Assembly: GCA_963716725.1 (NCBI GenBank) | Contig: CAVQUB010000030.1 | Span: 32,001-96,000, forward strand | Source: an uncultured delta proteobacterium | Lineage (GTDB): Bacteria > Myxococcota_A > Polyangia > Polyangiales > Polyangiaceae | Reading direction: 5' to 3' | Length of the DNA stretch: 64,000 nucleotides | Part shown: piece by piece, positions 43,521 to 56,719 of the stretch | How the letters are laid out: each line of letters begins with the position of its first letter | Numbering within the stretch: position 1 is the first letter of the stretch | The notes under the pieces: generated by a model | The model's database searches: none | Seen by the model: only the letters and a program-made list of their open reading frames with translations | Told to the model about the DNA's origin: nothing | Made by a program: the position numbers and the translations under genes

Positions 43521-43924
43521 GCCCGAAGGACAAAGGCGATCGCGAAGCTATCCTCTCCCGACGTCGGCTCTTCGTCGCGTCGGCGATGGCGAGCATCGTG
43601 GTTGCGGAGCCGGCCTGCGACACCCTGTTCAGACCCTGTCTGGAGCCGGCGATGCGCCCCGACGCGGAGCCGACGATGTGCCTCGCCGTGCCGCTGAGTC
43701 CCCGCGACGCATCGGTGTCGATCGTCACCGACGCCGGATCGGGCGCGGACGCCGCCGCCGAGCCCTGCCTGAGCGTTGCGCGCCCGCCGCCCGACGCCGG
43801 GCGAGACGCAGCGACCGAGCCGCCCCGTCCGTGTCTGGGGCCGTCGCGTCCGAGGCCCTGCCTATCGCCGCCGCCGCCGCCGCCGCAACCCTGCCTCAAG
43901 CCTTCGGGTGGCGGCTTCCCCTGA
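43517..43924 (+). CDS. small exported Pro-rich protein with six (P/M)CL motifs
   Basis: ATGA-coupled to the CBS gene; ILSRRRLFVASAMASIVV leader; RPCLE, TMCLA, EPCLS, RPCLG, RPCLS, QPCLK. Confidence 0.75.
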   Translation: MSPKDKGDREAILSRRRLFVASAMASIVVAEPACDTLFRPCLEPAMRPDAEPTMCLAVPLSPRDASVSIVTDAGSGADAAAEPCLSVARPPPDAGRDAATEPPRPCLGPSRPRPCLSPPPPPPQPCLKPSGGGFP

Positions 43925-45599
43925 TCCGACGACGGAGTCGCGCCAGCGCGAGCAGGCCGAGGCCGATCAGCGCCGCCGACGAGCCGGGACGTCCGGGAAG
44001 CTGACAGCCACAACCGGAGTCTTCGTCGCTCTCGGCCGCCTTTTTTCCACCACCACCGCTGGCGCCGCCGCTGCTGGCGCCGCCGCTGCTGGCGCCGCCG
44101 CTCCCAGCACCGCCGCCGGCCGATCCGCCGCCGCTGCCGGAGACACCGCCGCCGCCGGACACGCCGCCGCCGCCACCGCTGGAGGAGCCTCCCACGCCGG
44201 GTCCACCGTCCGGGGGCACGACGCTGCCGTCGTGCCACTCGAAGGCGCCGACGTCCACGGCGCTGCCTTGAGGACGTGGAATGCCTTCGATGTCGATCTT
44301 CGGAGCCTGATCGCTGGAGCCCTGGTTGATGGCGGGCGCGGTGGGGATCAGGTGCAGGTCGTTCTTGGCCGCGCTGACGAAGAACTGCGCGTAGTCCTTG
44401 AGCTCGATGTTGTGATCCTCGGTCACCCCCGCCGCGGCCAGGTTCAGATCGGTGGTCAGGTTGTTGCGCACCAAACAGCCCGTGGGCGCGGTGCCGTTCT
44501 TGTGCGCCCCGATCTGGATCCAGGGGGGGCCAGGCTTCTCCGTGTTCGGATCGATCACGGTGTTGTTCACCACCCGGCTGTTCTTGGCGCCCAAGAGCGT
44601 GATGCCGTGCCAGTGATCGGTGATGATCACGTTGTTCTCGATCACCCAGTCGACGAAGGTGCCGTCGAAGCAGCCGATGCCCTGGAGCGGGCCGCGGAGC
44701 GTCTGGTTGGGGTCTTCGTAGTTGATGATCACGTTGCCGCGCAGCATGACGCCGACCACCTGTCCGGTGCCGACCTTGCCGTCCCCGCCCACCGACCACG
44801 ACTGGAAGCCGTCGTCGTGGTTGTCGTTGACGTCGTAGCAGTTCTTGACGGTGTTGTATTGGAAGGTCGTGTAGTCGCCGAGGCCGCGCAGGCCGTCGCC
44901 GGCGAAGGAGTCGACGACGTTCTTCTCGATCAGTGAGTTCTTGGCGGTGACGCTGATGCCGAAGTTCACGTTCTTGATGTCGTTGCCGCGGATGGTGATC
45001 TTGTCGCCCGCGACCTGGAACACGTTGGCCGAGAGCGTGTCCCACTCGCTGGCGGTCCAGGCCGAGACGTCGGCCTTCGATCGGAGCACGCAGCTCTCGA
45101 CCGTGATCTCGCTCACGGGCCCTTGGGAGGCGTGGTTCTCGATGGCGACCATGGTGGCCTTGGCGTAGGTCGGCGCAAAGTCCGGGCTGATGGCCAGGCC
45201 CACCAGCTTCCAGTTGGAGCTCGACCGCACCAGCACCTTGCTCAACTTCGGCGTGTGCCCGGCCTGGGCGGCGACGGTGATGAGGCCCGTGTTGTAGTGG
45301 CTCGTGATGTCCAGTGAGCCGTGGTAGCCGTCGCGCAGCCAGAGGGTGTCTCCGGCTTTGACCACGCCGCTCGCGTTCTTGGCCACGAGCTTCGAGGCGC
45401 TGGTGTGGGGCACGACGTCCCACCCCTGAGTCTGGACCTTGCCGGTGCTGATCACCTCGTTGATGCTCTTCCACGGTTTGGCCGAGCTGCCATCGCCGGC
45501 CGCGCTGCCGTTGACCGGATCGACGTAGAAGTCGGCGGCGAGGGCGGTGGTGGAAAAGCAAACGATGGCGGCGGAGATGCCCAAGGCGACGCTACGCAT
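43896..45599 (-). CDS. secreted right-handed beta-helix (pectin-lyase-like) protein with choice-of-anchor-Q-like region and MYXO-CTERM
   Basis: Signal peptide, FYVDP..G...GDGS...PW, parallel beta-helix repeats, DLHL...PAINQG...DVGAFE, tail DSGCGC..hydrophobic..RLRRR. Confidence 0.85.
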   Translation of the reverse strand: MRSVALGISAAIVCFSTTALAADFYVDPVNGSAAGDGSSAKPWKSINEVISTGKVQTQGWDVVPHTSASKLVAKNASGVVKAGDTLWLRDGYHGSLDITSHYNTGLITVAAQAGHTPKLSKVLVRSSSNWKLVGLAISPDFAPTYAKATMVAIENHASQGPVSEITVESCVLRSKADVSAWTASEWDTLSANVFQVAGDKITIRGNDIKNVNFGISVTAKNSLIEKNVVDSFAGDGLRGLGDYTTFQYNTVKNCYDVNDNHDDGFQSWSVGGDGKVGTGQVVGVMLRGNVIINYEDPNQTLRGPLQGIGCFDGTFVDWVIENNVIITDHWHGITLLGAKNSRVVNNTVIDPNTEKPGPPWIQIGAHKNGTAPTGCLVRNNLTTDLNLAAAGVTEDHNIELKDYAQFFVSAAKNDLHLIPTAPAINQGSSDQAPKIDIEGIPRPQGSAVDVGAFEWHDGSVVPPDGGPGVGGSSSGGGGGVSGGGGVSGSGGGSAGGGAGSGGASSGGASSGGASGGGGKKAAESDEDSGCGCQLPGRPGSSAALIGLGLLALARLRRRIRGSRHPKA

Positions 45600-50971: not shown

Positions 50972-51454
50972 ATGTCGAATCGATTCGCCTTGCTGGCGAT
51001 TGCAGGCGCCATGTTTGCTTGTGGGGCTGCTCCGCCGCCGGCGTCGGCCCCCACGAGTTCGCCGCCGGCTCCGGCTTCGGCGGGCGAGCGATGCCTCGCG
51101 GAAGCGAGCGCGCCCCGCACACCGCGCAAAGATGCACCCGAGAAGATCACCGTGGCTCATGTGCTGGTGCGCCACCGGGAGCTGAAGCGTGCCGAGGGTG
51201 CGACCCGCACGCGCGCTGAGGCGTGTTTGCATGCGCAGAAGGCTCGCGAGAAGCTGCTCGCCGGTGCGGACTTTTCCGAGGTTGTCGCCGAATACTCGGA
51301 CAGCGGCGATGCGACTGGCGGCAAGCTCGGCAGCGTGTCGAAGTCCGACCTCGACGAGACCTTCGCGAGCGCGGCGTTTGCCCTCGACGTTGGCGAGCTC
51401 GGTCACGTCGTGGAGACGCCCCGGGGCTTTCACGTGATCGCGCGCAGCGAGTGA
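50972..51454 (+). CDS. parvulin-type peptidyl-prolyl isomerase lipoprotein
   Basis: AMFAC lipobox; AHVLV, YSD, GGKLG, FASAAFAL, VETPRGFHVI. Confidence 0.92.
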   Translation: MSNRFALLAIAGAMFACGAAPPPASAPTSSPPAPASAGERCLAEASAPRTPRKDAPEKITVAHVLVRHRELKRAEGATRTRAEACLHAQKAREKLLAGADFSEVVAEYSDSGDATGGKLGSVSKSDLDETFASAAFALDVGELGHVVETPRGFHVIARSE

Positions 51455-51461
51455 GCGGAGT

Positions 51462-54400
51462 TCAGAGCGCCGGCGGGAACAGCTTCGTGTCGATCTTGGG
51501 CTTGGTGAGCGAAGCGCTGACGGCCTTCCACGCGCCGCCGCCTTGTGAGAGCTCCAGGTCGCGATCCACGAGCGGGTCGTTGCAGCGGAGGATCATGGCT
51601 TCGATGGGCAGGTCCTGCGTCGGGAAGGTGGCGCTTGGGGCGTCGGCGGTCAGATCCGCCGTGGCGTGGCCGTGCACTTCGAGGAAGAGATCGTTGGCGT
51701 TGGCGCTGCCCACCGCGGGGCCGAGCCAGGCCCAGAGCCCGTCGCCGACGGCGTCGTCCTTCTCGCGCAGGGAGATGGAGCCCGCCGGGTGATTGAGGGT
51801 GCCCAGGTAGAGCACGACGAAGTTGAATTGATCCGAGAGTTCGGTACCGCCGAGCTGATCCAAGCCCGGCACGTTGGTGATGGCGAACTGGTTGAGCCCC
51901 GTGGGATCCGTCCACTTGGTCGGCGCGGCTCCCGCCACGATGTCTTCGCCCAGGTGGGCTTCGCTGGACTTGCCCCGGGCAAACTCCCAGATCACGGCGC
52001 GGTTCGGCGCGGTCAGGCTGCTGGCTTCGCAATAAGCGTTGGCCATGGCGCCGGTCGACGAGAACGCCCGCACGATGGCGGTCAGCCCGGTCGCCGGCGC
52101 GGGCCAGGGCCCTTCGTCGAAGACCTCGGCCTTGCCGTCCTTGGTCACTCGCAGTTGTTTGGGAGGACCAGCCAGGAGCTCGACCGTGGACGATTCTTTC
52201 TTTCCATTCTCGATGTCCGACGGCCAACCGCCTGGGACCGTGATCGTGGTGTTGACCGTCTTGCCGTCGGTCTGCACTTGCATGATGCGAAGCTGACGTT
52301 TGCGGGCCGGGCCATAGGGGTTGCGCGTCTCTGCCCAGAACAAGTTGAGGGCGTCGAACTCGAGTTGATAGGCGCGCTGCTTGCCAGCCCGCGTTTGCTT
52401 GCCATGCCAGACGGTCTTGCCGAGCGCGGCCAGAAGCTCCGCCGCGGGGCTGCCTCCACTGCCTCCGCTGCCTCCGCTGCCTCCGCTGCCGCCTCCCGTG
52501 CCGGCGAGCCCGCCGGATCCACTCGCGCCGCCCGTGCCGCCCGTGCCGCCCGAGACCACGCCGCCGCTCCCGGCGACCGCGCCTCCGCTGCCGCCAGGGC
52601 TGCCGCCGCTGCCTCCGCTGCCCCCAGCACCGCCGCCCGCCGCGCTGCTGCCGCCGTCATCTGCGCTGCACCCGGGGAGCACCAGCAAGAGAGCGAGGGC
52701 CGCGGCCCCGCGATTGCGTCGTCGGCGAGCCATCACCAGCGCGGCGAGGGCGAGCAAGGAGAGATGAGAGCCGGTGCTGCGTGCGGGGCCCGGCACCCGA
52801 CAACCACAGCCACCGTCGTCGCCGCTGCTCGACGGTCCAGTCGATGAGATGCCGCCGCCCGTCGATGCCCCGCCGTTGCCCCCGCTGCCGGTTCCTCCCG
52901 AGCCGGCGCCGCCGACACCGACTGGAGGGTCCGGCAGCCCTTGGATGGTCAGGCCAGTGCATTCCACCGACGGCGTTCCGGGCAGCGGGGGGTGTGCCCG
53001 GCTCAGACTGCCGCGATGCGCCGAGTCGCTCACCAGATCTTCGAGGGCCGTGAGCTTGCAGACGCCGGCGCTGGGCGCTGGCGTGAACGCGAAGAGCGAC
53101 CCGTCGTGGCACTCGACCGGAGCGTCGTCGTTCACCTGGGCCGACAGTACGGTCCCGGCCTTCCACAGGCTCATCAGTCCCTTCACGTCGAGGCCCAAGG
53201 GAAAGATGGCCTGACGCAGGTATTCGCAGACTCCCGCCTGCATCCAACTCGGTGTGTGTGAGGCGTCGAAGCTCGCCGGACCCACCAGTGGATCGGTGCC
53301 GGCAGGCAGCACGGAGCGGTGATCGGCGATGGCCGTCGCCGCGATGTTGAACGAGTGGCCGTAGAGCCCGCTGTCGAAGAGCTGATCGAGGAAGGTTCCG
53401 CTCTGTCCCACGGGCGCCGCCTGGGCGAGCCGCTGCAAGTACTCGGGCCGAATCTGGGCATACTGCGCCTTGTACTCGTCCACCAGATCCTGGACGTACT
53501 TGCTCGCTTCGTCGATGACGTAGGTCTTGATCGCGTCCTTGATGGGGGTCACGACCGGATCGAGCAATGCCGCGATCAAGCTCGGAATGGAGATATTCAC
53601 GCCGACGACCTGGAGCGCGCTCTGGAGATCTTGGAGCCACTGCGGGGCCACCGCCGTGGTCAGCGCCTGGTAGTCGATGGTGGTCAGATCATCGGCCCAC
53701 TTGTTGAGGGGCTGAAATAGCTGAACGACCTTCGACTTCTCCAGGGAGAGCCCGTCGCTGCCCGGGATGAGGGGGGTGTTCAGCTCGTTGGACAGGCTCT
53801 CGACCACTTGCAGGTAAGCCGGCGTGAACTTGAACAGGTCGTCGTGAAGCTTGTCGCTGATCTTGTCGAAAGCCGAGGGCAGCGGCTGGTTGGCTGCGTC
53901 GAAGCGGGGAGCGAGCAGAGCGACGTACACCTTGTACTTCCCGTACAGGCTGGCGCAACTCGCTGAGCAGGCCGTCGTGTCGTCGTTGGTGCCGAGTTTG
54001 CCGTCGGCGCCCGGCTTCACGCCCAGCGTCTTTCCATCCGCAGTGCCTGCGTTTTGCAGGTCGGCGATGCTCTTCTCGATCAGTGTCCGGATGCCTTTTC
54101 GCTCGTCGTCCAAGAAGCGCAGGTAGCGGGGGGTCAGCGCCAACGACTCGGCCGTTGCGAGCTTCGCCTGGGGGATGAGCAGCGTCAGCAGCGCGCCAGG
54201 GTTCGATGCCTTGGTGGACTCGAATTTCTCGAGGGCGGTTCCGGCCATGACCTTCCAGAGCGGGCTCTGCTCGTTGAAGTAGGCGCGCTCGACGAAGCTC
54301 TTGGGGATGGAGTGGGCGAGCTCGGTGTTCGTGAACGACTCTGGCGACAGGTTGAATGCCCCCTCTTGCACCATGTTCTCGGCGATGATGTGCCGGACCA

Positions 54401-54887
54401 CGTTACTCCAGGTCTGCTGGCGCCCGCTGGTGACCGGCGCCAAGGTGAACGTCTCCCCGGTCATCCAGTTGACGTAGTGGTGGGCAACGGCGTCCGTCGA
54501 CCCGTGCAAGAAACAACCGAGCGCGTAGGCGCGCTCCCCAGGCAAGATCGCCTCCTTGTACAAAAGCTCGCACTGCTCGTAGGGGCGCTGCCCGATGGCG
54601 TGGGAGGGGTCGGTCATGCCGGGGAAGGCCATGTTGTCCGGGCCCACTGCCCCCGCGCGGAACTCGAGGGGGTGATTGGTCAAAGCGTCTACGTCCTCTG
54701 CCTTCAGCACCACAGTGTGATTGCCGAAGCGAAGTGGAACGCCGGCGCCGCCGTGCTGGATCAGCGATTTACGCACGTCGTTGGCCAGCTTGATGTGGAA
54801 GCGGGTGGTGAACGCCGGCGCGCTCCGCGCCGCTGACAAGGTCGCGCACAGCGCCAGCGCCCCCAACCCGACGGCGAGCCTTCGCAT
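51462..54887 (-). CDS. Zn-dependent phospholipase C/P1-nuclease-fold secreted protein with internal MYXO-CTERM and a second lipoprotein module
   Basis: Signal ending APA|FTTRFH, GAVGPD, GCFLHGSTDAVAHH, HIIAE; DDGGCGC..TM..RRRR at about 52715-52820, then LALLLVLPGC. Confidence 0.8.
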   Translation of the reverse strand: MRRLAVGLGALALCATLSAARSAPAFTTRFHIKLANDVRKSLIQHGGAGVPLRFGNHTVVLKAEDVDALTNHPLEFRAGAVGPDNMAFPGMTDPSHAIGQRPYEQCELLYKEAILPGERAYALGCFLHGSTDAVAHHYVNWMTGETFTLAPVTSGRQQTWSNVVRHIIAENMVQEGAFNLSPESFTNTELAHSIPKSFVERAYFNEQSPLWKVMAGTALEKFESTKASNPGALLTLLIPQAKLATAESLALTPRYLRFLDDERKGIRTLIEKSIADLQNAGTADGKTLGVKPGADGKLGTNDDTTACSASCASLYGKYKVYVALLAPRFDAANQPLPSAFDKISDKLHDDLFKFTPAYLQVVESLSNELNTPLIPGSDGLSLEKSKVVQLFQPLNKWADDLTTIDYQALTTAVAPQWLQDLQSALQVVGVNISIPSLIAALLDPVVTPIKDAIKTYVIDEASKYVQDLVDEYKAQYAQIRPEYLQRLAQAAPVGQSGTFLDQLFDSGLYGHSFNIAATAIADHRSVLPAGTDPLVGPASFDASHTPSWMQAGVCEYLRQAIFPLGLDVKGLMSLWKAGTVLSAQVNDDAPVECHDGSLFAFTPAPSAGVCKLTALEDLVSDSAHRGSLSRAHPPLPGTPSVECTGLTIQGLPDPPVGVGGAGSGGTGSGGNGGASTGGGISSTGPSSSGDDGGCGCRVPGPARSTGSHLSLLALAALVMARRRRNRGAAALALLLVLPGCSADDGGSSAAGGGAGGSGGSGGSPGGSGGAVAGSGGVVSGGTGGTGGASGSGGLAGTGGGSGGSGGSGGSGGSPAAELLAALGKTVWHGKQTRAGKQRAYQLEFDALNLFWAETRNPYGPARKRQLRIMQVQTDGKTVNTTITVPGGWPSDIENGKKESSTVELLAGPPKQLRVTKDGKAEVFDEGPWPAPATGLTAIVRAFSSTGAMANAYCEASSLTAPNRAVIWEFARGKSSEAHLGEDIVAGAAPTKWTDPTGLNQFAITNVPGLDQLGGTELSDQFNFVVLYLGTLNHPAGSISLREKDDAVGDGLWAWLGPAVGSANANDLFLEVHGHATADLTADAPSATFPTQDLPIEAMILRCNDPLVDRDLELSQGGGAWKAVSASLTKPKIDTKLFPPAL

Positions 54888-54893
54888 TCGACG

Positions 54894-54899
54894 AGTATA
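54894..54899 (-). promoter_or_regulatory. putative -10 element (TATACT), leaderless
   Basis: 6 nt before ATG 54887, no SD. Confidence 0.6.
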
Positions 54900-54949
54900 C
54901 ACCCCTTCGGAGCCGGCCCCCCCGCTGCCGTTCGTGGTATTCGGCGGAC

Positions 54950-56719
54950 ATGACCGTGCTGGTGCTCAACGCAGGCTCGTCGTCCCTGAAGGCTCAGTTG
55001 CTCGATCCAGAGTCAGGCGCCCTGGTCGAGAAGACCATGGTCGAGCGCATCGGCGAAGCCGGGCGCACGCACGAGCTGGCCGTGACGGAGGTGCTCGAGC
55101 ACCTGAAGGGACCCGCCCTCCGCGCCGTTGGCCATCGGGTCGTGCACGGGGGCGCGGACTTCACCAGCGCCGTCGTGATCGACGACGCCGTCGAGGCCGC
55201 CATCGAGCGCTGCATTCCCCTGGCTCCGCTCCACAATCCGGCCAACCTCGCCGGCATTCGCGCCGCGCGCCGGGCGCTGCCCGGGGTGCCCCACGTGGCG
55301 GTGTTCGACACGGCGTTTCACGCGCGCATGCCGCGCCGAGCCTCGACCTATGCCATCGATCAGGAGGTCGCGCTTCAGAACGGTATCCGCCGCTTCGGCT
55401 TCCACGGGACCTCCCACGCCTATGTGGCGGATCTCGCCGCTCAGACCCTGGGGCGGCCGCTGTCCGAGCTGCGGGTGATCAGCCTGCACCTCGGCAACGG
55501 AGCCAGCGCCTGCGCCGTCGAGCACGGACATTCGACGGAGACCAGCATGGGCATGACGCCGCTCGAGGGGCTGGTGATGGGGACCCGCTCGGGTGATATC
55601 GACGCTGGAGCGGTGCTCATGCTCGTCCGCGCCGGCTGGGACGCCGAGCGGCTCGATCGGCTGCTCAACCAGGAGAGCGGTCTCAAGGGGTTGTCGGGCG
55701 TGGGCAACGACCTCAGAGACATCGAGGCGCGGGCCGAGGCCGGCGACGATCGCTGCCGGCTGGCCATCACGGTCTTCTCGCACCGCGTGCGCAAGTACAT
55801 CGGGGCCTATGCTGCGGCCATGGGCGGCCTCGACGCGGTGGTATTCACGGCGGGCATCGGCGAGAACGCCGCGACGATGCGGCGGCGCGTCCTGCAGCGC
55901 TTCGATTTTCTCGGCATCGTCTTCGACGAAGACAAGAACGCCGATGCTCGCGTGACCGCACAGTCGCCGGTCGCGTTCGTGACGGCGGAGCACTCGCGTG
56001 TGGCCGCCCTGGTGGTCAAGACCAACGAAGAGCTGTCCATCGCCCGGCAGGCCGTCGCCGTGGTCCGGGAGCGCGAGCGCGCGGCGCCGGCGACGCCGAT
56101 CCCCATCGCCATCAGCGCCCGGCACCTGCACCTGACAGCCGAGACCTTCGCGGCGCTGTTCGGCGCGGACGCCACGCCGACCCACTACCGGGACATTTCC
56201 CAGCCGGGCCAGTTCGCCTGCAAGGAGCTGGTGAACATCATCGGGCCGCGCGGTCGGATCGACGGCGTACGGCTCCTCGGCCCGCTGCGACGGTCGAACC
56301 AAGTCGAGGTCTCACGGACCGACGAGTTCAAGCTCGGGGTCGATGCGCCGATCCGCGATTCGGGCAAGACCGAAGGCTCCGCGCCCATCGTGATCGAGGG
56401 GCCCAAGGGCAGCGTCAACCTCGCGGAGGGCCTGATCTGCGCCAAGCGGCACATCCACATGGCGCCGGCAGATGCCGAACGCTTTGCTGTGCGCGACGGC
56501 GACGAGGTGGAGGTGGCGATCACCAACGGGCCACGCGACCTGGTCTTTGGCGACGTGCTCGTGCGAGTGAGCCCCAAGTACAAGCTCGAGATGCACATCG
56601 ACACCGACGAGGGCAACGCGGCAGAGCTGAACCCGGACGCGGTCGGCGAGCTCACGTACACGGACGTCCTCGGCGCCCAGGCCGTGCTGAGCACCCGACG
56701 CGTGCGACTGCCGGGTTGA
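54950..56719 (+). CDS. ackA: acetate/propionate kinase fused to PduL-type phosphate acyltransferase
   Basis: LNAGSSSLK, GHRVVHGG, APLHNP, FDTAFH, GFHGTSH, HLGNG, TNEE; then ISARHLHL, ICAKRHIHM, MHIDTDEGNA (PduL). Confidence 0.93.
   Translation: MTVLVLNAGSSSLKAQLLDPESGALVEKTMVERIGEAGRTHELAVTEVLEHLKGPALRAVGHRVVHGGADFTSAVVIDDAVEAAIERCIPLAPLHNPANLAGIRAARRALPGVPHVAVFDTAFHARMPRRASTYAIDQEVALQNGIRRFGFHGTSHAYVADLAAQTLGRPLSELRVISLHLGNGASACAVEHGHSTETSMGMTPLEGLVMGTRSGDIDAGAVLMLVRAGWDAERLDRLLNQESGLKGLSGVGNDLRDIEARAEAGDDRCRLAITVFSHRVRKYIGAYAAAMGGLDAVVFTAGIGENAATMRRRVLQRFDFLGIVFDEDKNADARVTAQSPVAFVTAEHSRVAALVVKTNEELSIARQAVAVVRERERAAPATPIPIAISARHLHLTAETFAALFGADATPTHYRDISQPGQFACKELVNIIGPRGRIDGVRLLGPLRRSNQVEVSRTDEFKLGVDAPIRDSGKTEGSAPIVIEGPKGSVNLAEGLICAKRHIHMAPADAERFAVRDGDEVEVAITNGPRDLVFGDVLVRVSPKYKLEMHIDTDEGNAAELNPDAVGELTYTDVLGAQAVLSTRRVRLPG

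Follow-up and report, generated by a model that had tools for sequence, protein, structure and literature searches.

MYXO-CTERM sorting tags are cleaved by the myxosortase MrtX in a reaction that needs their cysteines, and lipidation of the tag has been proposed, for which Lgt is named as the favoured candidate, in the available text of the study concerned (Guo, Haft and Wall, mBio 2025, PMC11980579). [quoted passage not shown] Here we consider a gene on the minus strand of a 64,000-nucleotide stretch of DNA (the window; contig CAVQUB010000030.1 of assembly GCA_963716725.1, positions 32,001 to 96,000) from an uncultured member of the Polyangiaceae. Its product carries in its interior a MYXO-CTERM tag whose arginine-rich tail leads, without a stop codon, into a lipoprotein-type signal and a further domain, and it is probably the precursor of two envelope proteins that would be joined by a membrane helical hairpin and cut on both of its arms.

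MXAN_5598 differs from this arrangement in consisting of an adhesin followed by an outer-membrane beta-barrel and an OmpA domain, and the available parts of the report mention neither a second signal peptide nor a lipobox after its tag, nor conservation across a family or a comparison of split and fused forms (PMC11980579). In the family studied here, by contrast, the Arg tail runs directly into a lipoprotein signal and the predicted second product is a lipoprotein. The original prediction for this locus, made from the letters of the window alone, had stated that no description of such an arrangement was known; this does not stand for the internal MYXO-CTERM, which is in print for MXAN_5598, and it does stand for the signal peptide and lipobox that follow, which the available text leaves unmentioned (PMC11980579). 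Thus, the internal tag and the idea of gene fusion are already published for one protein; the hairpin from tail to lipobox, its conservation, the interchange of split and fused forms with coupled lipoprotein genes and the recurrence in other families are new as far as our literature searches go. These searches, whose scope left out most subscription journals, found no such tail-to-lipobox arrangement, and the words "internal", "fusion" and "lipoprotein" are absent from the 2023 myxosortase preprint of Haft.

In the archaeon Haloferax volcanii, the ArtA substrate HVO_0405 likewise unites two formerly independent genes around a central tripartite signal of the C-terminal type, which is cleaved in vivo in a manner that depends on lipidation enzymes; the uncleaved form is reported to be unstable, and the large size shift has made the protein useful for archaeosortase work (available text of PMC7157517). 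It differs in being archaeal, in its PGF-type signal and unrelated protease, and in that this text mentions no further signal for export or lipidation behind the tag; furthermore, it is a strain-specific fusion, whereas the fusion studied here is conserved in many lineages (PMC7157517). The TraA/TraB pair of M. xanthus offers a third likeness, in that the gene for a MYXO-CTERM surface protein overlaps that of its envelope partner, with the difference that there are two genes and that the partner is of the OmpA type and not a lipoprotein (PMC11980579, available text). Eleven loci of our survey, in which the two halves of the family are split, share this layout, five of them with an ATGA overlap. 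A further system, the FbcH cytochrome b/c1 precursor of Bradyrhizobium japonicum, yields two membrane-associated proteins from one gene by cleavage at an internal signal peptide, with signal peptidase I acting at a single site and without lipid anchors or a C-terminal sorting tag. Our literature search for the FbcH polyprotein found no paper.

The elements of the studied ORF, in window coordinates and given in amino acids (aa) of the product, are as follows:

51462..54902, minus strand: whole ORF (P0001), 1146 aa, likely start ATG 54887, stop 51462-51464
54813..54887, minus strand: predicted type I Sec signal peptide with an A-x-A site, MRRLAVGLGALALCATLSAARSAPA cut before F, as read from the sequence; starts MRRLAV and ends SAPA ahead of the F
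52923..54812, minus strand: N-domain, aa 31-660, predicted all-alpha, its first ~160 aa like the Zn-dependent phospholipase C / P1-nuclease type
52821..52922, minus strand: Gly/Ser-rich linker 1, aa 661-694, from the sequence
52710..52820, minus strand: internal MYXO-CTERM, aa 695-731, with the DDGGCGC motif, the helix HLSLLALAALVMA and the Arg cluster RRRRNR, from TIGR03901
52668..52709, minus strand: lipoprotein-type hydrophobic region (h-region) and lipobox, aa 732-745, GAAALALLLVLPG-C, with Cys745 at 52668-52670
52452..52667, minus strand: Gly/Ser-rich linker 2, aa 746-817, from the sequence
51465..52451, minus strand: C-domain, aa 818-1146 (329 aa), a beta-rich N-terminal half and then a lectin-type, PA14-like half, from AlphaFold2 (AF2) and Foldseek

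The original prediction had placed the junction at 52668-52820; these coordinates are exact and its description is correct, to which the minus strand, left unstated there, is to be added. Residues 695-731 read DDGGCGCRVPGPARSTGSHLSLLALAALVMARRRRNR in full, opening with DDGGCGCRVPG and continuing with HLSLLALAALVMARRRRNR, and display the tripartite build of a MYXO-CTERM tag in GCGC, the helix HLSLLALAALVMA and RRRRNR. The NCBIfam model for MYXO-CTERM (TIGR03901, curated cut-off 20 bits) matches aa 696-729 with 26.4 bits (E 6.5e-6); the extreme C-terminal position typical of the tag is lacking, as 415 residues come after the Arg cluster. The following segment shows the basic n-region (RRRRNR), short h-region (13 residues) and lipobox (LPGC) of a lipoprotein signal, which begins at aa 726 of 1146 and not at the N-terminus, and from Cys745 the frame runs on for 401 residues with no intervening stop. 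In hydropathy windows of 15 aa, positions 711-725 (1.81) and 733-747 (2.13) are the strongest outside the N-terminal signal, which peaks at 2.04 at aa 9-23, and one segment of the N-domain. At the cleavage site of that N-terminal signal the consensus of the relatives is AxA followed by FSTRVH. The G+C content at third codon positions of 51462..54902 is 0.84, like that of the neighbouring genes. The likeness that had been claimed to the tail of the protein at 43896-45599 (minus strand) is borne out by TIGR03901, which matches the true C-terminus of the latter (aa 527-558 of 567) with 26.1 bits; this protein combines a right-handed beta-helix (PF13229) and a choice-of-anchor Q domain, and it provides an ordinary terminal tag within the same window.

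A search of protein clusters with the N-terminal 723 aa recovered 187 clusters at E<=0.001. Among the best 120 of these 187, 96 are at least 1000 aa long, 19 measure 690-810 aa and five are of other, fragment-like lengths; by script, an internal MYXO-CTERM-like motif with a lipobox is present in 86 of the 96 long clusters, and a MYXO-CTERM-like tail terminates 16 of the 19 shorter ones. A genome survey, in which one-genome-per-species contigs were searched with an alignment of the family (A1), gave 80 loci, mostly from metagenome-assembled genomes (MAGs) and mostly labelled Myxococcota or Deltaproteobacteria, with a few labelled Proteobacteria, Rhodobacterales or "bacterium" and one from Paraliomyxa miuraensis. 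Classed by BLASTP with both domains and by the ORFs, taken from stop to stop, of the matched strand, 46 of the 80 loci hold N-domain, junction and C-domain in a single open frame, 15 have two ORFs, 11 are cut by a contig end and eight have the N-domain only. Four of the 15 two-ORF loci (L039, L042, L051, L076) keep the fused junction and have a frameshift elsewhere, so that 11 are truly split, and the fused junction is also visible in two of the loci cut by a contig end (L014, L049). Of the eight N-domain-only loci, five (L072, L077-L080) continue for more than 5 kilobases downstream, where that strand, the only one searched, holds no C-domain, and the other three are uninformative.

The comparison of fused and split homologues that had been suggested as a check on the original prediction comes out in its favour, with a single frame in 46 of the 80 loci, the junction in six more and 11 split. 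The three closest genome relatives of the window (L001-L003, independent MAGs from different assemblies) carry the same junction, which persists in frame down to 34% best-segment identity across the 46 loci, and the elements keep the same order in Polyangiaceae, Nannocystaceae and Sandaracinaceae. Within this one family, the fusion of tail to lipobox is retained in more than 50 species-level genomes. Judged from these sequence comparisons, the fusion is genuine, old and conserved. In one of the frameshifted loci (L042:5932-9114, plus strand; the frameshift lies ahead of the C-domain), Cys-rich inserts of ~60 aa flank the junction on both sides (CSPGQPCTAG..CFLTCRC and CGPGRKCTPG..CFLVCAC) and resemble a small module present twice.

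At each of the 11 split loci, the frame of the first gene closes a few residues past the Arg cluster, so that MYXO-CTERM is its terminal element. The second ORF opens with Met and a basic n-region that lead into a lipoprotein signal of the classical kind, such as MKRLCVLAVSVLLAAC followed by GSD or MKTRPMRRQTWLVVGALGALIALSGC followed by GDD, and to these N-terminal signals the internal lipobox segment of the fused forms is homologous. The MYXO-CTERM tag is terminal in these 11 and in five N-domain-only relatives. The two genes of the split form are tightly coupled: the gap from stop to start is -4 nucleotides (nt; an ATGA overlap) in five of the 11, -11, -1 or +2 nt in three and 57-84 nt in three. 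One of the two products would be sorted by MYXO-CTERM and the other would be a lipoprotein. An exhaustive search with the C-domain recovered 68 representatives at E<=0.001, of which 45 reach E<=1e-30; 18 of these 45 are at least 1000 aa long and align at their C-terminal end, 11 have the stand-alone size of 330-450 aa, six (584-927 aa) start within the N-domain and are fragments, and ten are shorter pieces. Among the 11 of stand-alone size, seven have an N-terminal lipoprotein signal, two retain parts of the fused junction and two are without a signal. The two halves of the fusion are thus found as separate genes, at 11 of the 80 loci, and since the split products end or begin with MYXO-CTERM and lipoprotein signals of their own, the fused form encodes two proteins that are elsewhere made and anchored separately.

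The history of the two layouts was followed on a tree of 77 N-domains (quick IQ-TREE search, LG+G4), which omits loci whose N-domain match covers fewer than 560 query residues and was rooted, by assumption, on the N-domain-only pair L079/L080 (29% identical). The fused, split and N-only states require seven changes on this tree, and its starred branches force at least five changes for the fused state and at least three for the split state. The window and L001-L003, all fused, form a clade with support 100, and the sister of this clade is a split one (L004/L005/L006/L048), with support 98 for the eight rows. Given the quick search and the assumed root, we make no claim as to the order of the two states; the repeated interchange suggests that selection treats both layouts as equivalent.

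The junction itself appears to be under constraint at both of its arms. The CxC cysteines (Cys699 and Cys701 of P0001) are invariant in the 35 of 35 aligned full-length sequences (G693, C694 and C696 of A1), and in the set of 47 fused junctions made up of the window and the 46 loci, a lipobox Cys closes the second hydrophobic segment in 46 (40 by script and six by eye, namely L015, L017, L044, L065, L068 and L071). The regular expression (regex) for the junction matched 48 of 53, with L027, L029, L043, L053, L055 and L065, where an earlier Cys of the h-region had been picked, read by eye. Among the 48 regex-matched junctions, 29 have G and 17 have A immediately before the lipobox Cys, and 22 have L at -3. 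The second hydrophobic segment is 10-17 residues long and resembles that of a signal peptide, and in 29 of the 48 the Arg cluster abuts it with zero residues between. In light of this direct abutment, the Arg cluster can serve at once as the cytoplasmic tail of the tag and as the n-region of the next signal, the double use that the original prediction had proposed. About 15 fused junctions also score 16-27 bits with NF058595 ("lipo-invert putative C-terminal anchoring domain"), below its cut-off of 37, in matches that span the helix, the Arg cluster and the second segment; our literature search found no paper on this model.

From N- to C-terminus, the chain thus presents a Sec signal, a Zn-hydrolase-like N-domain, a Gly/Ser linker, the MYXO-CTERM, the lipobox segment, a second Gly/Ser linker and the PA14-like C-domain, and we propose the following course for it. 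The N-domain would be exported through Sec until the MYXO-CTERM helix acts as a stop-transfer segment, with the Arg cluster remaining cytoplasmic by the positive-inside rule. As the n-region of the next segment, the same cluster would then direct a re-insertion with N-in/C-out orientation that carries the C-domain across the membrane. Lgt and LspA would lipidate and cut at Cys745, thereby releasing a lipoprotein, and the myxosortase MrtX would cut at the lipidated CxC motif and free the N-domain for display at the surface. A hairpin peptide of ~45 aa would remain, and both products could reach the places of their split-gene counterparts in equal amounts.

Two other accounts would dispense with a regular precursor. 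An artefact, in which a one-off stop loss, frameshift or assembly error has joined two neighbouring genes, might appeal to the split loci L021, L045 and L052, in which both ORFs lie in the same frame, a single stop codon and 57-84 nt apart, so that one change could fuse such a pair; it was rejected, and is given virtually no credence here, in view of the in-frame junction at 46 independent loci out of the 80, its presence at six more, its occurrence in 86 of the 96 long protein clusters and its retention in the three nearest relatives. The second account, raised as an alternative in the original prediction, is that the second protein is made chiefly from an internal start before the Arg cluster and that the read-through fusion is minor or irrelevant. 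It would suit the window, where an in-frame ATG (Met724, 52733) stands two codons ahead of the Arg cluster and a start at this codon gives MARRRRNRGAAALALLLVLPGC, a textbook lipoprotein signal; as had been noted, no Shine-Dalgarno-like 4-mer lies upstream of it. The relatives speak against it: a script that took the 14 codons before the Arg cluster as the region of interest was able to assess 43 of the 47 fused junctions and found an ATG in eight, at varying positions, any of ATG, GTG or TTG in 29, and a Shine-Dalgarno-like 4-mer in one, whereas such a 4-mer precedes the second gene, by eye, in five of the 11 split loci. Furthermore, as there is no stop codon, the entire second protein would remain attached to the first product. 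A conserved internal start was rejected on these counts, and we hold this account to be highly improbable; Met724 not being conserved, the second domain would normally be made within the long chain.

A different kind of alternative accepts the fusion as real and supposes that it is left uncut, as an inner-membrane protein that would have a two-helix hairpin and both domains in the periplasm, or that it is cut at one site only, such that myxosortase would free the N-domain alone and the remnant would anchor the C-domain. We consider this unlikely, while recognizing several points that weigh against cleavage on both arms and in part favour the alternative. Among 46 fused junction segments, TIGR03901 reaches its cut-off in 29, matches below threshold (E<=0.01) in six and does not match in 11, so that its score is lost or sub-threshold in 17; for 16 terminal forms the corresponding figures are 14, two and none. 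This shortfall is in part technical, as some segments are cut inside the motif or have low-complexity flanks, and it may also reflect some relaxation of the constraint on the tag in fused forms. The lipobox consensus is [LVI][ASTVI][GAS]C, and the Pro at -2 of the window lipobox (LPGC) is atypical, the closest relatives having ISGC, LSGC and LVGC. One fused member, L067, is alone in lacking the second hydrophobic segment: at L067:8020-8238 (plus strand) GCGGC is followed by one helix ending AGAC-TRRG and then by an acidic linker straight into the C-domain, which on the hairpin model would stay cytoplasmic. Our literature searches turned up no action of Lgt or LspA on an internal signal, and the reported instability of uncleaved HVO_0405 indicates that fusions of this kind can be costly. 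On the other side stand the lipobox Cys, which 46 of the 47 fused forms retain and which G or A precedes in 46 of the 48 junctions matched by the regex, the invariance of the CxC cysteines, and a second segment of 10-17 residues that is like an h-region and shorter than a membrane span. The repeated switching with a two-gene form, the products of which are necessarily separate, likewise argues for equivalent products and hence for the doubly cleaved precursor.

As to what the two products might do, PF00882 (Zinc-dependent phospholipase C) scores 17 bits on the N-domain of the window, under its gathering score of 26.8; at E<=0.01 the model finds 46 of 52 relatives, with 2.5e-7 as the best value, and some database sources label the relatives "zinc dependent phospholipase C family protein". 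Nine N-domain columns are invariant among the 52 sequences (H9, D62, H74, H106, D110, H114, H115, H144 and E148), and this His/Asp/Glu set together with the F-x-x-x-x-H of the predicted mature N-terminus is compatible with the phospholipase C / P1-nuclease type and may correspond to the metal ligands of such structures. The AF2 model of the N-domain (633 aa) is all-alpha, with a predicted local distance difference test (pLDDT) score of 88.8; a fold search of the PDB with the whole 633-aa model gave no match at E<=0.001. Pfam gave no match to the whole 1146-aa protein at E<=0.1, and profile searches of PDB sequences with the N-domain and the C-domain returned nothing significant.

The C-domain model (pLDDT 93.8) was matched by Foldseek to the PA14 domain 6m8m in the PDB (E 1.9e-5, target-normalised template-modelling score 0.70) and to many adhesin domains of the Flo (Flo5), Epa (Epa1) and Cea1 (Cea1A) types with probability 1.00; the model thus shows a PA14 fold, over a match of about 200-250 of its 329 residues. 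None of 47 C-domain members has a Pfam family at E<=0.01, and a search of the ESM Atlas with this domain gave no usable match. A putative surface hydrolase working with a putative glycan-binding lipoprotein partner is a reasonable guess from these models.

The junction is not confined to this family. A regex scan of 1543 long ORFs from the window and the 80 loci (about 1 megabase of DNA) gave 41 matches to the internal junction, of which 40 belong to the studied family, the window ORF included, and one to a different gene. This sole match outside the family (P0186; L071:472-3954, minus strand) begins with an S8 subtilase (PF00082, E 1.5e-36), has a junction made of CAC, a helix and RRRR and then ASRLALALALGGC followed by AGDP, continues with a putative HExxH metalloprotease of the MXAN_6640 family (NF045524, 202 bits, cut-off 140) and ends in a second, terminal MYXO-CTERM-like tail; its second product would carry an N-terminal lipobox as well as a C-terminal sorting tag. 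Longer proteins with the C-terminal part of P0186 were then sought and fall into 47 clusters, of which 31 have an internal MYXO-CTERM-like motif with a lipobox by script, six more show the junction by eye (P0188, P0191, P0196, P0200, P0210, P0223) and 33 end in a MYXO-CTERM-like tail. Five (P0229-P0233) are tandems of HExxH, tag, lipobox and HExxH, and three (P0220, P0227, P0228) combine HExxH, tag, an apparent type I signal and a TonB-dependent receptor, a layout that resembles that of MXAN_5598.

The pairs joined through this cassette are thus: 1) hydrolase and PA14-like lipoprotein; 2) S8 and HExxH; 3) HExxH and HExxH; 4) HExxH and TonB-dependent receptor. Its presence in such different fusions suggests that the phylum has repeatedly fused envelope proteins by this means. 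A MYXO-CTERM tail followed by the next signal peptide could plausibly, if somewhat short of probably, be a general self-removing membrane linker in Myxococcota, from which two lipid-dependent intramembrane cuts, one on each arm of the hairpin, would release unrelated pairs of fused envelope proteins. As the hairpin would bring a Cys of the CxC motif and the lipobox Cys side by side on the periplasmic side, both could be lipidated by a single enzyme of the Lgt type, and if they are, this would answer which enzyme lipidates MYXO-CTERM.

If cut as proposed, the studied gene would encode a bacterial envelope "polyprotein" that delivers two differently lipid-anchored proteins in a fixed 1:1 ratio, and myxosortase research would gain a natural substrate that changes greatly in size on cleavage. 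A single molecule would, in addition, bring together the lipidation step of MYXO-CTERM and a classical Lgt site, which would make the Lgt hypothesis of Guo et al. directly testable. For annotation, proteins with a tail-to-lipobox junction would have to be described as two mature products, and a match to MYXO-CTERM in the middle of a protein is not spurious per se.

In the window, the studied gene stands alone between a divergent neighbour upstream and a convergent neighbour downstream. The former (54950-56719, plus strand) combines in one ORF an acetate kinase (PF00871, E 1.6e-129) and a PduL-type phosphate propanoyltransferase (PF06130, E 2.2e-72), a combination that would unite acetate kinase and phosphotransacylase in one protein. 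The latter (50972-51454, plus strand) codes for a small peptidyl-prolyl isomerase of the PpiC type, which has a signal like that of lipoproteins (MSNRFALLAIAGAMFAC), and ends 8 nt from the stop of the studied gene.

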